Shown here: in pieces, positions 3,946-8,108 of the stretch
How positions within the stretch are numbered: position 1 is the stretch's first letter
Layout: each line of letters opens with the position of its first letter
From: Chloroflexota bacterium
Lineage (GTDB): Bacteria; Chloroflexota; Anaerolineae; Anaerolineales; UBA11579
Assembly (NCBI GenBank): GCA_013112575.1
Contig: JABFGG010000003.1
Span: forward strand, 83,096-147,095
Length of the DNA: 64,000 bases
Reading direction: 5' to 3'
Program-made: the position numbers and the translations under genes
The notes under the pieces: model-generated
Database searches by the model: none
What the model saw: only the letters and a program-made list of their open reading frames with translations
What the model was told of the DNA's origin: nothing

Positions 3946-5739
3946 CTAACCTGGGGTCCAATGAACAGCAACGGTTGTGCCAGAGCCTGGACCTGAATCA
4001 ATCTTCAACTCAGCCCCCAGTAGTTCTGCACGTTCCATCATGCTGGCAATGCCGTAATGTTTCTCTGCTAGCAACCCAGCAAGGTCCAGCCCTGCTTCGA
4101 AGTTAAACCCTGCCCCATTATCAATGACTTCCAGTTGGATAGCTTCACTTTCAATCGTGCCACTAACGAAAATGGTTTGAGCATCTGCGTGGCGGATGGC
4201 ATTTTCGCAAGCTTGCTGCACGATGCGAAACAGATGGGCCTCGACACGTTCATCGAAGCGGTGGGGACTAGGTGGTATGGTAACTTCAATTTCAGTGCCA
4301 TGGTTGGTGCGCTTGTTGAGGGTTTGCCCGAGTTCTTCAAAGGCAGTGTGCAAACCGTGGTTCAACATAGGGGGGCGAAGATCTTGCACTGTGCCGCGAA
4401 TGTGGTCGGTTAGCTTCTGGTAATCTTTTTGAAATTCACTAGAGACATTCCCACTCATCTTCATGGAAAGAACAGCCAATTCATTAAGCACATCGTCATG
4501 TAATTCGCGGGCAATGTGTTCCTTTTCATCTTCCTGGCGCTTGACATTGGCCATGTAGAGGGAACGCAGGTCGGTTGCCAATGAGATGTTAGACACTGCA
4601 ACTGAAGTTTGGTTTGCAAGAGTTTGCAGGAATGCGATGTCGCGTTGGGAATAAAAGTCTTCAGGGTCACGCCGGCCAAACAGCCAGAGGCCAATGATTT
4701 CCCCTTCAATGTCTAGGGGAATTATGAGACGTACCCAATCAAGAGCTGATTCAGTTCCGTTCTCGGAATGGATAGGAAGATATTTGCTGGTTTGTTCAAG
4801 AAGTGCTGGAATCTGACTTCTCTGAACTTTACGATTGTCCTGGACCCCTATGGATAAAATCCTGCTCCAGCTTCCTTCTTTATCTAAAAAGAGCAAACAC
4901 GATTGACGGATGAGCATGCTGGGGAGGATCGTTTCGGACAGCACTTGATTGAGCCTTGTGAGGTTCAAGCTTCCGGTGATCTCGCGAGCGTATGAATGCA
5001 TCAGGCCTTCGGGAGGAAGAGGTATACCAAGGACGCGCTCTTCCACAAAACGCTCAAAGCGACGGAAGCCTGAAACGGCAAAGATAACCGTTAGCACGGC
5101 TACAGATACCGCAATAGTCGTGCTGCTACCGGGGAAATCCACCCAGGCCAGTAGCAAAGGAGTAATGAAAGAGATGATGGTAGCAGCAAGGAATATAAAG
5201 AGGTAGACACTAATGATGCGGTTGGCGCGGAGTTCCAGCCCCCCCAGGCGATGCCGGAAGATGGCATAAAAGTATGCGAAAGGCATAATCGGAAGGGCTA
5301 ACAAGGCCCCGGCTATAACACCCGTAGTGGTATTAAAAACAGTGGTTAATGTCACGGCCAAGAGGGGAACAAAAGAAAACAAAATTGCCCAAAGCAGCAC
5401 CCGAATTGCACGTCGTTCGGCCGGGCGCAGTATGTAGTGCATAACTGCGAGAAGAATACTTGCTAAGACGGCTATAAAGAATGCTGTTAGATGCACGGAT
5501 TCAGGCAGAACGATTAAAAACTGTGAGATGGCGATCAGTACAAATCCAAAGTAAGTGACCAGCCAAAATCTTTTTGGCAGAGAAAACAGAGGTCTGGGGA
5601 AATTCCAGTGCAGATGGACATAAATGGGTATGGCTGTCCACAAGGTGGCACGGAATATAAGAAGTAATGATATTTGGCTGTGATTCCTGTGATGAACCAT
5701 AGGGCAGTTATGAAATTGAAAGCAATCAGCAACTTCCAC
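3946..5739 (-). CDS. Sensor histidine kinase, C-terminal portion (several TM helices, GAF-like segment, HisKA_3 H-box, HATPase_c); its 5' end is probably supplied by ORF 5535-6179 across a frameshift
   Basis: H-box IARELHDDVLNEL. N/G boxes ENAIRHA, DNGAGF and GPGSGT. The N-terminal half is hydrophobic. The first ~22 codons of the tracked ORF look non-native. Confidence 0.85.
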   Translation of the reverse strand: MEVADCFQFHNCPMVHHRNHSQISLLLIFRATLWTAIPIYVHLHWNFPRPLFSLPKRFWLVTYFGFVLIAISQFLIVLPESVHLTAFFIAVLASILLAVMHYILRPAERRAIRVLLWAILFSFVPLLAVTLTTVFNTTTGVIAGALLALPIMPFAYFYAIFRHRLGGLELRANRIISVYLFIFLAATIISFITPLLLAWVDFPGSSTTIAVSVAVLTVIFAVSGFRRFERFVEERVLGIPLPPEGLMHSYAREITGSLNLTRLNQVLSETILPSMLIRQSCLLFLDKEGSWSRILSIGVQDNRKVQRSQIPALLEQTSKYLPIHSENGTESALDWVRLIIPLDIEGEIIGLWLFGRRDPEDFYSQRDIAFLQTLANQTSVAVSNISLATDLRSLYMANVKRQEDEKEHIARELHDDVLNELAVLSMKMSGNVSSEFQKDYQKLTDHIRGTVQDLRPPMLNHGLHTAFEELGQTLNKRTNHGTEIEVTIPPSPHRFDERVEAHLFRIVQQACENAIRHADAQTIFVSGTIESEAIQLEVIDNGAGFNFEAGLDLAGLLAEKHYGIASMMERAELLGAELKIDSGPGSGTTVAVHWTPG

Positions 5740-6179
5740 AAATTGTCACGCGGGCGAATCAAGAGATACGTAATGAAGCCTATAAACCAAAAGAGCAGTG
5801 AAAGCAACGGGCTATTAAAAATGCGTGAAATAGCCGCACGGGTTGTAATTCCAAAATACGTCCAAGGAATGGTTAACTCTTGGCCGTTGCGCAATATAAG
5901 TAATTCGATCTGGTCGCCGACCTGCACATTACCCAGGAATATCTCATAGGGATCATCATGAAATGTTGTCATACTATGTTCGCCGACTCTGAGCAAAATA
6001 TCCCCAATCTGTAGTGTTTGGGAATTGCTATAGATATCTGTAACATCAAATGATCGGTTGGTAAAATCGAAGCCAGGATACGGGGAAAAGAGCAGATAGG
6101 CGAAAAAATAGAATAACAAGATCGCCAAGCTTATCCAGGGGAGATATTTGAATGATCGGTCTAAAAGATTGTTATCCAT
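5535..6179 (-). CDS. N-terminal portion of the same kinase: TM1, a ~90-aa PDZ-like extracytoplasmic loop, then further TM helices
   Basis: WISLAILLFYFFAYLLF (TM1), then IGDILLRVGE...VGDQIELLILRNGQELTI (PDZ-like), then hydrophobic helices. It overlaps ORF 3946-5739 by about 200 nt in another frame. Confidence 0.7.
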   Translation of the reverse strand: MDNNLLDRSFKYLPWISLAILLFYFFAYLLFSPYPGFDFTNRSFDVTDIYSNSQTLQIGDILLRVGEHSMTTFHDDPYEIFLGNVQVGDQIELLILRNGQELTIPWTYFGITTRAAISRIFNSPLLSLLFWFIGFITYLLIRPRDNLWKLLIAFNFITALWFITGITAKYHYFLYSVPPCGQPYPFMSICTGISPDLCFLCQKDFGWSLTLDLY

Positions 6180-6264
6180 AACCTAATAACCTGAGAGGAG
6201 GTTAATTTATTGTACTTTACTGCTGAAAAATCTTGATCAAGTAATTTCATAATATAAGGAGAAA

Positions 6265-6405
6265 ATGATGTTAAGCATGCAAGCTTTTTATACCCATTCT
6301 ATAGAGCAGAAGACAAATTATCTTGGAACCTTACAGCGGATTGCCCGCGCACCCCGAAAAGTCATAAAGGACCTCGCTGTTGCCTATGCATGGGATGCCT
6401 GGTAG
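6265..6405 (+). CDS. Unlisted 46-codon ORF; candidate ComX-like pheromone/RiPP precursor ending AYAWDAW
   Basis: Hand translation gives MMLSMQAFYTHSIEQKTNYLGTLQRIARAPRKVIKDLAVAYAWDAW. AAGGAG SD at 6256-6261, a strong terminator 16 nt after the TAG stop, and a position directly upstream of the prenyl-synthase-like gene. Confidence 0.5.
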   Translation: MMLSMQAFYTHSIEQKTNYLGTLQRIARAPRKVIKDLAVAYAWDAW

Positions 6406-6420
6406 TCCATAAATTTATTG

Positions 6421-6461
6421 AAAACAACAGCCAGGGAACTCTTCCCTGGCTGTTGTTTTTC
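6421..6461 (+). terminator. Intrinsic terminator between the mini-ORF and the prenyl-synthase-like gene
   Basis: AAAACAACAGCCAGGGAA (6421-6438) pairs with TTCCCTGGCTGTTGTTTT (6442-6459) around a 3-nt loop. The T-run leads directly into the GGAGGA SD at 6462-6467. Confidence 0.75.
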
Positions 6462-6472
6462 TGGAGGACAAT

Positions 6473-7465
6473 GTGAAATTTGAAGAAAGGATGTTTAAGT
6501 TTTTGACGCAATTGGCGGTAGTCGCAGCAATCCCTGACATTGGGAAAATCATTGAGCGCGCCAATCAGGAAATGCCACCTGCCTGGCCTCTGCCAAAACA
6601 TGTCTGCGCGGCGGTGGGAGGAGGTGAAAAGGAAGCTATTGAAGCTTCAATAGCCATCGCCTGTTGCCAGATAAGTATCATCCTGATCGATGATCTTTTG
6701 GATGAAGACCCGCGTGGTGAGCATCATCGGATTGGTGTGGGCAGTGCAGCCAATTACGCTTCAGCATTTCAGACAGCGGGTATAGAAGTAGTTCTAAATA
6801 GCAATATGTCTGAAAAAACAAAGCTGCTGGCTATTCACATAATTAACAGCATGATGCGTGATACCGCCGCGGGGCAGGAGATAGATATTCAAAATCCGGA
6901 TAACGAAGAAGCCTACTGGCAAATGGTGCGTGCCAAGAGTTCGCCCTATTTCGGAGCAGCCTTCGCTGTGGGGGCATTGTTTGGCGGGGCTTCCCCGGAA
7001 CTAGCTTACCAAATGAAAAAGCTAGGTGAATTGCATGGAGAGATCGTGCAGATCGGTGACGACCTGGAGGATACGATGGAGTCTCCGGCAGGCCCCGATT
7101 GGGGTAATGGGCGTTATACGTTACCTATTCTGTTCGCTTCGATCGTCGAACATCCAGAACGGCAGCTTTTCTTGGAGATAAGGAAAAGTGTTGAAACTGT
7201 TGCGGATTTGGAAGCCGCGCAAGACATCCTGATACGTTGTGGGGCAGTCGGTTATTGCCTGGACCAGATCCTGTGGCGCTATGAGCAGGCCAAACAAATG
7301 TGGTCGGAATTTGAATTGGACGACAGGTCCCCGGTTGAGGCAATCTTCCTTGAATCCGTCACTCCGGTGTGGAATTTGTTGGGCGGATTAGGTGAGGCCC
7401 TTCCTGAAGATTTCAGACCCAACTATGGTGATGTTACTCTTGATGCTCCGGTGACTGCGGGGTGA
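6473..7465 (+). CDS. Polyprenyl-synthetase-fold protein (candidate ComQ-like peptide prenyltransferase)
   Basis: GTG start 5 nt after GGAGGA. Two Asp-rich motifs, ILIDDLLDED and QIGDDLEDT, plus GQEIDI. About 330 aa, like trans-prenyl diphosphate synthases and ComQ. Confidence 0.8.
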   Translation: MKFEERMFKFLTQLAVVAAIPDIGKIIERANQEMPPAWPLPKHVCAAVGGGEKEAIEASIAIACCQISIILIDDLLDEDPRGEHHRIGVGSAANYASAFQTAGIEVVLNSNMSEKTKLLAIHIINSMMRDTAAGQEIDIQNPDNEEAYWQMVRAKSSPYFGAAFAVGALFGGASPELAYQMKKLGELHGEIVQIGDDLEDTMESPAGPDWGNGRYTLPILFASIVEHPERQLFLEIRKSVETVADLEAAQDILIRCGAVGYCLDQILWRYEQAKQMWSEFELDDRSPVEAIFLESVTPVWNLLGGLGEALPEDFRPNYGDVTLDAPVTAG

Positions 7466-8108
7466 TTAAGCCTTTTTTACGGGCTTCTTCGATTGCAGCC
7501 GGGAGATTGCGTACACCCAGTTTGGCATAGGTGGTCGAGAGCAAATTGCGAACGGTGGAGTGAGCGATATGCAACTCCTCTGCAACTTTGGACGTCGATA
7601 GGCTGGGATCGTTGGCAAAATAATTCAGCACTTCCAGTTGCCTGGGTGTAATAATCTTTTTATTTGGGCTATCAATCAATTCTCGGGCAGCTTCGGAGAC
7701 AAAAATTGATCCAGCATTCACCTGACGTATGACCTCATCAAGCTTGCGTGTGACTTCCATGTCATCCTTGAGAACGAAACCGGCTGTGCCTACATCCAGG
7801 GCGTGTTGGATCAAATAACTCTGTTTATGCATAGATATCACTAAAACCCTGGTCCCTGGATGTTTACGCACGATCTCTGGAAGCTTATCAACCATTGGGT
7901 AGGTGCTGTCATCTTCCGCTGAAACGGGCACGGTGATGTCAAGTAGCAACACATCTATACCACCTTGCGCCAGCATGGGCTCTAATTCTGCGCCATAAGT
8001 TGCTGTTGCCACAACCTCACAGTCTGGTGCCTCACTTAAACGAAATTTGTATCCATCAATGATACTGGCATGATCGTCTAAAATGGCGATACGAATAGTG
8101 TTAGGCAT
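7434..8108 (-). CDS. NarL/LuxR-family response regulator (REC + HTH)
   Basis: IAILDDH...DVLLLDITVP receiver motifs. C-terminal LuxR-type HTH (LSTSKVAEELHIAHSTVRNLLSTTYAKLGV). The 3' end overlaps the convergent gene by 32 nt. Confidence 0.92.
   Translation of the reverse strand: MPNTIRIAILDDHASIIDGYKFRLSEAPDCEVVATATYGAELEPMLAQGGIDVLLLDITVPVSAEDDSTYPMVDKLPEIVRKHPGTRVLVISMHKQSYLIQHALDVGTAGFVLKDDMEVTRKLDEVIRQVNAGSIFVSEAARELIDSPNKKIITPRQLEVLNYFANDPSLSTSKVAEELHIAHSTVRNLLSTTYAKLGVRNLPAAIEEARKKGLITPQSPEHQE

Follow-up and report, generated by a model that had tools for sequence, protein, structure and literature searches.

Modules of the ComQXPA type were catalogued in a 2014 census, which required four genes on one strand and found them in Firmicutes only (PMC4008528), and a 2022 survey reported Chloroflexi with only the pair of histidine kinase and response regulator (PMC8895600). 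A preprint dated August 2026 describes StheQ and StheX of Sphaerobacter thermophilus as the first ComQ-like pair outside the Firmicutes, and gives the biological role of their product as unknown (bioRxiv 10.64898/2026.08.29.745113). Here we describe a further locus, present in a 64,000-nucleotide (nt) stretch of a Chloroflexota genome (contig JABFGG010000003.1, positions 83,096 to 147,095; hereafter the window). It comprises a small open reading frame (ORF), which we call X, followed on the same strand by a gene for a prenyltransferase-like protein, Q, with a divergent gene for a sensor histidine kinase, HK, on one side and a convergent gene for a response regulator, RR, on the other (Table 1).

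We put the probability at about 0.65 that X (6268-6405) encodes the precursor of a Trp-modified signalling peptide and that HK, X, Q and RR form a ComQXPA-like module specific to the Anaerolineae and related Chloroflexota. A preliminary description of this DNA, made from the letters alone, had read X as a peptide precursor paired with a prenyl-synthase-like enzyme, and the comparative evidence supports that reading. Judged by comparison with its relatives, X is conserved, codes for a protein and evolves under purifying selection, and its product is very probably the substrate of Q.

Conservation of the small gene X

The ORF of X in the window translates as MMLSMQAFYTHSIEQKTNYLGTLQRIARAPRKVIKDLAVAYAWDAW*, with tandem ATGs at 6265 and 6268 and a TAG stop at 6403-6405. 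The preliminary description had translated this frame by hand and had noted the Shine-Dalgarno (SD) sequence AAGGAG, both ATGs and the stop, all of which agree with the sequence. Translation probably starts at the second ATG, which gives a peptide of 45 amino acids, because this ATG aligns with the family start M-x-x-M-Q and because its SD spacer of 6 nt corresponds to the family mode of 6-8 nt. The gene calls of Logan likewise give 45 amino acids; these calls are the only database entry of the exact peptide, none coming from NCBI, and the ORF appears to be without annotation in the NCBI record. The peptide database search needs shared 5-mers and returned the identical sequence alone, which makes it uninformative on the size of the family.

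By itself an ORF of 46 codons is not significant, as the first 14 kb of the window contain 142 ORFs of at least 30 amino acids; the significance of X comes from its conservation in relatives, not from its length. A scan with a Q profile, in which each GTDB species was represented by one genome, found 152 relatives, of which we kept 80 loci. All 80 are from Chloroflexota, mainly Anaerolineales/Anaerolineae with some Ardenticatenaceae and Caldilineaceae. The set in which X was counted has 82 loci, namely these 80, the window and its closest relative, an ENA contig (L001) that carries HK(-), a 47-amino-acid ORF, Q, RR(-) and ilvD in this order and whose Q is ~70-72% identical to that of the window. 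An ORF of 43-68 amino acids lies just upstream of Q, on the same strand, in 77 of the 82 loci, and two passes, one that listed the small ORFs before Q without bias and one guided by the motif, agree on this number. The preliminary description had counted loss of the reading frame, with only the hairpin downstream of X retained, against a coding function. We found the opposite: the frame is present in these 77 loci, the C-terminal motif WxxW is invariant, and the ratio of non-synonymous to synonymous substitution rates (dN/dS) is 0.05-0.27 in more than 20 close pairs, in which synonymous changes dominate.

The X family comprises 77 distinct sequences, which begin with the consensus M-x-x-M-Q-x-F-Y/H, have the mid-region consensus L..LT+.S..Q (leader form L..(L/I)(T/A)+.s..) and end in an invariant W-x-x-W followed by 0-16 variable residues. 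Only F8, W43 and W46 are invariant columns of the alignment. In the window peptide, W43-x-x-W46 stands at the very C-terminus (codons 6391-6393 and 6400-6402), which confirms the Trp residues that had been placed at -4 and -1 and assigns them to the invariant motif; the nearest orthologue (L001, 3835-3978) reads MLNMQAFYEQTQNESTSYLNVLRRVFNFPRETILNLAIADVWGVWGE. An SD core is found at most 20 nt, and mostly 5-10 nt, before the start of X in 74 of 78 members, compared to a background of 14%. The window peptide matched no Pfam or NCBIfam model, and a Pfam search with 48 members of the family gave only scattered single-member matches at chance level (E >= 0.017). In one locus (L035, 1645-1770), an X homologue opens normally (MLSMQDFREWLSSAEETADAYRRNLVQLTR...) and loses the frame before WxxW; this is probably a frameshifted X or an assembly error.

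We examined synteny by searching the 82 loci with the window kinase and regulator (tblastn). HK is directly upstream of X, on the opposite strand, in 64-66 loci, and RR is directly downstream of Q, on the opposite strand, in 72; the loci in which HK or RR was not detected are mostly contigs too short to judge. The order HK(-), X(+), Q(+), RR(-) is that of the window and of about 65-72 of the 82 loci. The preliminary description had named synteny as a way of checking X, and an X homologue indeed stands directly upstream of the prenyl-synthase-like gene, with HK and RR as flanks in about 70 of the 81 related Anaerolineae loci examined.

A distant subgroup (L067, L074, L076 and L078-L081, from Caldilineaceae, Ardenticatenaceae and others) has the kinase 3' of Q on the same strand, with the regulator not adjacent, and may represent an intermediate gene arrangement. 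The X ORFs of this subgroup (L074, L078-L081) encode peptides that start with M..MTIEEFNALL and keep WxxW at their end, and they are located 110-509 nt upstream of Q; L067 and L076 yielded no X ORF, and the upstream sequence of L076 is too short to tell. Two metagenome-assembled genomes (MAGs) each carry two X-Q loci with differing peptides, L003 and L006 in MFD01213.bin.1.46 and L013 and L080 in SRP077602_co5_33. The 5 kb fetched upstream of Q in L006 gave no kinase homologue. Some genomes may therefore contain paralogous or orphan loci for signal production.

Table 1. Positions and strands of the features of the locus in the window.
Feature	Positions	Strand	Basis and remarks
HK, ComP-like sensor histidine kinase	3946..6179	-	Pfam and BLASTP; divergent from X
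Upstream motif, window form GAGAGGAGGTTAATTTATTGTACT	6193..6216	+	version of AAAGGAGGTG(A/G)T
SD of X, AAGGAG	6256..6261	+	read from sequence
X, candidate precursor-peptide gene	6265..6405	+	46 codons from first ATG, 45 from 6268
Hairpin between X and Q	6420..6460	+	RNAfold; 18-19 bp, 3-nt loop
SD of Q, GGAGGA	6462..6467	+	read from sequence
Q, trans-IPPS-fold prenyltransferase-like protein	6473..7465	+	330 amino acids, GTG start, Pfam polyprenyl_synt
RR, NarL/LuxR-type response regulator (REC + GerE)	7434..8108	-	Pfam; convergent with Q

In the window, the locus is flanked by dnaK-dnaJ-prmA on one side and by ilvD-ilvB-ilvN-ilvC-leuA on the other. The database entry identical to the Q protein is a hypothetical protein labelled 'MAG: Chloroflexi bacterium'.

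The enzyme Q and the divergence of the module

Q is a protein of 330 amino acids with a Pfam polyprenyl_synt match (PF00348, E 1.7e-19), in agreement with the definition of ComQ as a single-domain PF00348 protein of ~300 amino acids. Its AlphaFold2 model (pLDDT 92, pTM 0.89) has the all-alpha fold found in trans isoprenyl diphosphate synthases (IPPS). The nearest solved structures were geranylgeranyl diphosphate (GGPP) and polyprenyl synthases, with TM-scores of 0.74-0.76, and the indole prenyltransferase Ord1 ranked 48th in this Foldseek search of PDB, a set of entries released up to April 2026 that contains no ComQ or StheQ structure and therefore resolves the fold only. The best PDB match by sequence is a GGPP synthase, 5jfq (E 4.7e-20). 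For comparison with ComQXPA, we fetched Bacillus degQ-comQ-comX-comP-comA loci (L082-L085), using as bait a ComX sequence that proved 98-100% identical to database entries. An hhalign comparison of Q with Bacillus ComQ (E 4.6e-5, probability 68%) indicates a weak but real relation.

Both aspartate-rich motifs of prenyl synthases are retained. The first (FARM; DDMLDEDPRG) is D73-D74-L-L-D77 in the window Q, with D73, D74 and D77 invariant, and is present in 81 of 81 loci. The second (SARM; QIHDDLND) is D196-D197-L-E-D200, with its Asp residues invariant in the alignment and DDxxD in 78 of 81 loci. Basic motif I (GGKRxR) binds isopentenyl diphosphate (IPP) in chain-elongating synthases. This GKRxR element, searched for as G[KR][KR]x[KR] upstream of FARM, is found in none of the 35 aligned Q members, and P..W.LP with an invariant Trp occupies its place. 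Similarly, the Lys residues past SARM are lost, the Q family having T..PA(N/G)PDW compared to SGKGKIGKDW in 5jfq. The loss of both GKRxR and the post-SARM Lys residues argues against ordinary chain elongation. Q stands in a ComQ-like context but, by its true SARM, departs from the ComQ family in one defining feature; it may be an independent, or a less diverged, recruitment of an IPPS to peptide prenylation.

We considered a comX-type ORF downstream of Q and rejected it, as there is no room: RR overlaps the 3' end of Q by 32 bp (7434-7465). Comparably close convergence of the two genes is seen in most loci, and transcription of Q and of RR may interfere with each other. A further ORF, at 7239-7391, is wholly inside Q.

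HK has Pfam matches to HisKA_3, HATPase_c, GAF and, weakly, PDZ_2, arranged as a first transmembrane (TM) segment, a PDZ-like outer loop, ~9 TM segments, a GAF-like linker, HisKA_3 and HATPase_c. It is thus a multi-TM kinase with PF07730 and PF02518, as ComP is defined. An intact HK orthologue matched Bacillus ComP by BLASTP with an E value of 4e-16, and the match is colinear (299-737 versus 296-746). The two proteins also agree in length (746-747 versus 755 amino acids), in having ~10 hydrophobic segments with the last at 357-375, in the position of HisKA_3 at about 555 and in a weak PDZ-like first outer loop. RR has REC (PF00072) and a GerE/LuxR helix-turn-helix (PF00196), the combination by which ComA is recognised; its similarity to Bacillus ComA (BLASTP E 7e-9, 20% identity) is at the level of the class only.

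In the window, HK is split into two ORFs, 5535-6179 (214 amino acids) and 3946-5739 (597 amino acids), by a frameshifting 10-bp deletion (ACCCCGATAG, near 5655-5660) relative to the intact, 747-amino-acid gene of L088 (run SRR10579384). The same deletion occurs in L086 and L087 (runs DRR538838 and SRR7585905). Because it recurs in these two further runs, the deletion is a real allele and no artefact of homopolymer sequencing. Beside the broken HK, the genes X, Q and RR are intact. The deletion looks like a natural receptor-null polymorphism, and the window strain is predicted to make the signal without sensing it.

The components of the module diverge at very different rates. Amino-acid identity between the window and L001 is 96% for IlvD, 77% for RR, 70% for Q, 65% for HK and 44% for X, and it is 44-52% for the sensor part of HK (the first TM segment and the outer loop). 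Non-synonymous divergence follows the same order (ilvD 0.02, RR 0.13, Q 0.19, HK 0.22, X 0.37), so that the ranking is X > sensor > Q > RR >> flank. Synonymous divergence approaches saturation both in the flanks (0.6) and in the locus (0.75-0.8), and we therefore make no claim of balancing selection. The comQXP pherotypes of Bacillus show such a pattern of polymorphism, and the divergence across this module resembles it.

The hairpin between X and Q and the region upstream of X

The spacer between X and Q contains a perfect inverted repeat in the window (6421-6438 and 6442-6459; 18 nt, 100% complementary, with a 3-nt loop), which is the longest perfect short-loop inverted repeat of the 64 kb. 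RNAfold gives a stem of 19 bp with a dG of -34.5 kcal/mol (z = -6.2), and none of 200 dinucleotide shuffles folded as well. The hairpin begins 14 nt past the stop of X and ends 1 nt before the SD of Q; the preliminary description had reported both the 18-bp hairpin after the TAG and the GGAGGA that follows, and both are confirmed. The T-run that it had placed behind the hairpin exists (6454-6458), but is part of the 3' arm, where it pairs with the A-run of the 5' arm, rather than a separate tail, and only TC comes after the full stem. A terminator-like shape is obtained only if the outer A-U pairs are counted as open. A simple terminator scan called nothing at this hairpin, because the T-run is inside the stem.

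To place this hairpin among its relatives, we took a census of the 66 loci with an X-Q spacer of 30-130 nt. The spacer folds far better than its shuffles (z < -2) in 64 of the 66, with a median z of -5.2, and each spacer has one dominant hairpin (medians: 13 bp, 9 GC pairs, 4-nt loop). At the median, the hairpin starts 14.5 nt past the stop of X, and its end is separated by 4 nt from the SD and by 16 nt from the start of Q; an SD core follows it in 57 of the 66 loci. The spacers fold at -0.457 kcal/nt, compared to -0.229 for random segments of the same length from the same loci (Mann-Whitney p = 2e-32) and to -0.102 for the region 5' of X. Stem sequences differ from locus to locus, which points to selection mainly on structure. 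A CTGGCC(A/G) core is nevertheless found in 20 of the 66 loci, compared to 3.7% of random 62-mers, and hints at a sequence-specific factor besides structure; its common form is CTGGCC(G/A)GG ... CC(C/T)GGCCAG, for example in L010, L015, L027, L037, L043 and L064. A search of 5900-6700 with Rfam returned nothing beyond chance hairpin matches to models of eukaryotic miRNAs and snoRNAs, none of which reached its gathering score.

What the loci have in common is a strong hairpin next to the SD of Q rather than a terminator of the canonical kind. Of the leaky terminator put forward in the preliminary description, the hairpin itself is conserved; the U-tail is mostly absent, which leaves termination as one of several readings. 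The hairpin is a candidate attenuator, 3'-end or mRNA stabiliser, or occluder of a standby site, each of which would lower Q relative to X. Attenuators after precursor genes of RiPPs (peptides synthesized ribosomally and modified post-translationally) are a documented strategy, in which the precursor gene comes first, a stable stem-loop second and the enzyme gene, behind an SD of its own, third, as here (PMC7113386). The hairpins of the X-Q family differ from these in that they mostly lack a U-tail and that the stem ends a median of 4 nt before the SD of Q; on both grounds an effect on mRNA stability or on translation is as plausible as termination.

The region upstream of X holds a second conserved element. 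Of 78 loci, 67 have a GGAGG in the 260 nt that precede X, and in these the positions of AAAGGAGGTG are 76-100% conserved. The full motif, AAAGGAGGTG(A/G)T, is a perfect anti-16S SD-like element, mostly 76-100 nt before the start codon of X. It could be a stabiliser SD of the 5'-untranslated region (5'-UTR), of the kind of STAB-SD in Bacillus cryIIIA, a mini-ORF of 3-8 codons or part of the divergent kinase promoter. In roughly half of the loci the motif is followed by ATTATAGCG(T/C)AAGA, whose opposite strand reads a perfect TATAAT. An imperfect palindrome, TGAAAAATCTTGATCAAGTAATTTCA (window 6224-6249), follows the upstream motif and precedes the SD of X; it may be an operator for the LuxR-type regulator. 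A simple promoter scan found no convincing promoter of X, the 88-nt spacer between HK and X having no clear -35/-10 pair. Elsewhere in the window, a perfect 12-bp hairpin (AGGGGCTAAGCA/TGCTTAGCCCCT, 1652-1675), with a T-rich stretch after it, stands between dnaK and dnaJ as a second intra-operon hairpin.

Interpretation and comparison with known systems

We envisage the following course of events. X would be translated from its own strong SD, and its conserved leader of ~35 residues would dock onto Q. Q would bind an allylic prenyl diphosphate through FARM and SARM, its IPP site being lost, and would move the prenyl group onto one or both Trp residues of the C-terminal WxxW. The modified peptide would be trimmed and would then exit the cell, as ComX does; the multi-pass ComP-like kinase would sense it and phosphorylate the NarL-type regulator. 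The hairpin would keep the substrate X in excess over Q by partial termination, by shielding a short X transcript at its 3' end or by crowding the ribosome standby site of Q. We infer the prenylation, the Trp acceptor, the export, the sensing by the kinase and the choice of hairpin mechanism.

A number of observations weigh against a ComQXPA-like signalling module. X shows no detectable homology to ComX, as hhalign against an alignment of Bacillus ComX gave a probability of 0.5% and none of 48 X members matched PF05952 (ComX). Profile scores place Q nearer to archaeal GGPP synthase (75 bits) and Ord1 (55 bits) than to Bacillus ComQ (27-32 bits). Q also lacks the pseudo-SARM of ComQ and StheQ, having Asp at the first SARM position. 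According to the preprint, changing Asn to Asp at this position (StheQ N215D, ComQ N186D) costs 90-98% of the peptide-prenylating activity (bioRxiv 10.64898/2026.08.29.745113), so the chemistry of Q may differ from that of ComQ. HK is a pseudogene in the window strain itself, and genes for a transporter or a protease are not conserved in the locus. Most hairpins are followed by no U-tail, as the next 8 nt contain at least 5 T in only 6 of the 66 loci and at most 2 T in 40, and termination there is only a possibility. The support for the module comes from sequence comparison and predicted structure.

The alternative that survives best retains X as the substrate of Q and takes the product to be a prenylated RiPP with another role than that of a pheromone (an antimicrobial, membrane-anchored or surface-active lipopeptide), HK and RR only regulating the operon or sensing an unrelated cue. 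The pairing of X with Q and the invariance of WxxW are silent on the role of the product, that of StheQ/StheX being likewise unknown, and HK can be lost with X, Q and RR intact. We consider this alternative unlikely, however, since HK is specifically ComP-like in its architecture rather than a generic HisKA_3 kinase and co-occurs with X-Q in about 65 of the 82 loci. Moreover, neither immunity nor transporter genes are conserved, and the fastest-evolving parts of the locus are X and the sensor part of HK, as would be expected of a co-evolving pair of ligand and receptor.

Alternatively, Q could be a genuine prenyl diphosphate synthase or another small-molecule prenyltransferase, and X a small subunit that assists it in an accessory, regulatory or chaperone function. 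Some prenyl synthases are heteromers in which a small subunit is non-catalytic, both DDxxD motifs are retained in Q, and the top matches of Q in sequence and structure are GGPP and polyprenyl synthases. If this were so, the absence of GKRxR and of the post-SARM Lys residues from all 35 aligned members would be surprising, and it weakens the canonical GGPP synthase reading in particular. Known small subunits have 140-250 amino acids and are thus unlike an X of 45-60 amino acids with an invariant WxxW near a variable C-terminal end, and the tight linkage to a ComP-like kinase would be left unexplained. We therefore think it improbable.

A Trp-sensing attenuator, in which X would be a leader peptide and stalling of the ribosome at its two Trp codons would govern the hairpin and hence Q, is very improbable, and we rejected it. 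The resemblance to trpL, two Trp codons near the stop and then a strong hairpin before the next gene, is superficial. Purifying selection acts on the amino acids of the entire peptide, whose N-terminal motif is conserved; the distances from WxxW to the stop (0-16 codons) and from the stop to the stem (2-65 nt) are both variable; no antiterminator pairing is apparent, the stem being a perfect self-contained hairpin; most hairpins have no U-tail; and Q is outside the Trp pathway. Finally, that X is a chance intergenic frame and the hairpin alone is functional is refuted by the retention of frame, length class, SD and WxxW in 77 of the 82 loci with a dN/dS well below 1, even though ORFs of such length are frequent by chance and this one is unannotated at NCBI and known as an exact peptide from Logan gene calls only.

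Anaerobic digesters, activated sludge, sediments and subsurface habitats are rich in Anaerolineae, very few of which have been cultured. We know of no cell-cell signalling system described for them. The X-Q locus is a concrete and widespread candidate, with relatives of Q in 152 GTDB species-representative genomes, and WxxW provides a simple fixed handle on the X peptide. If the module is what we propose, the filamentous and largely uncultured Anaerolineae would have in it their first quorum-sensing system based on a peptide, with pherotype-like diversification and with natural strains made blind to the signal by a kinase deletion. The putative prenylation of a peptide by Q would run counter to the current view that a pseudo-SARM is needed by IPPS enzymes that prenylate peptides, Q being a natural exception, and Q could show how an IPP-condensing enzyme is converted into an indole prenyltransferase. 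The X family matches no Pfam or NCBIfam model, and its members may be unannotated in many further genome records.

The locus resembles ComQXPA in several respects. Both have the same four types of component, a PF00348 enzyme, a short Trp-containing peptide, a multi-TM kinase and a REC + GerE regulator, and in both the peptide has ~45-60 amino acids, a Trp close to the C-terminus and no signal peptide. The census defined ComX by a length of 52-73 amino acids and a Trp in the last 5-10 residues (PMC4008528), a description that X follows, the window peptide being slightly short with 45-46. In both systems peptide, enzyme and the sensor part of the kinase diverge much faster than the regulator and the flanks. 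Receptor-null alleles occur in nature in both, as the deletion in the window and a split comP in 2 of the 4 Bacillus loci that we fetched; comP is called as two ORFs in L083 (5175-7501) and L085 (1535-3762), with comQ, comX and comA intact.

The differences from ComQXPA are equally clear. X lies ahead of Q, with a divergent kinase and a convergent regulator, whereas the Bacillus genes run comQ-comX-comP-comA on one strand (PMC4008528), the order that we also saw in L082-L085, and the window locus thus falls outside the one-strand definition. X has two invariant Trp residues (WxxW) and ComX has one. Q keeps a true SARM, QIHDDLND, where the aligned position of Bacillus ComQ reads QISGDY. Lastly, the phylum is Chloroflexota here and Firmicutes for ComQXPA.

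StheQ/StheX is from the same phylum, although from another class of Chloroflexi, and likewise places an IPPS-fold enzyme beside a small ORF whose product has two Trp residues near its C-terminus. According to the preprint, the leader of StheX is ordered and bound to the enzyme and its C-terminal tail is flexible, which we count as a likeness (bioRxiv 10.64898/2026.08.29.745113). StheX differs from X in lying downstream of its enzyme gene, in having 69 amino acids and in carrying an adjacent WW at -3 and -2. StheQ has a pseudo-SARM, N215-D-x-x-D, in which the Asn is essential and N215D loses 98% of the activity, whereas the family described here has Asp throughout. The available part of the preprint describes the gene pair only and mentions no kinase or regulator.

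PalP-PalX-PalQ of Paenibacillus alvei likewise lists a kinase, a precursor and a prenyltransferase, with the precursor upstream of the enzyme, and PalX has its substrate Trp at the very C-terminus (PMC10853753), as do the window X (...AWDAW) and 8 of 78 family members. The leader of PalX, however, is of the NHLP type and ~72 residues long, and X matched no NHLP model. PalQ resembles terpene synthases and clusters separately, outside the polyprenyl-synthase family, whereas Q is PF00348, and PalQ needs Trp as the last residue (PMC10853753), whereas most X members carry 1-16 residues past WxxW.

A full-text literature search (ComQ with Anaerolinea or Chloroflexi) found no description of the X-Q family. 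It is conceivable, although we hold it only tentatively, that the X-Q pair is a separate lineage of IPPS-derived peptide prenyltransferases that has kept the second, metal-binding Asp motif, and the chemistry at WxxW could then differ from a single C3-prenylation: both Trp residues might be modified, the regiochemistry or the chain length might be other, or the product might be prenyl-bridged. The locus departs from the known systems in five ways: in its gene order, in the family of its peptide, in an invariant WxxW, in keeping SARM and in a U-less hairpin that abuts the SD of Q.

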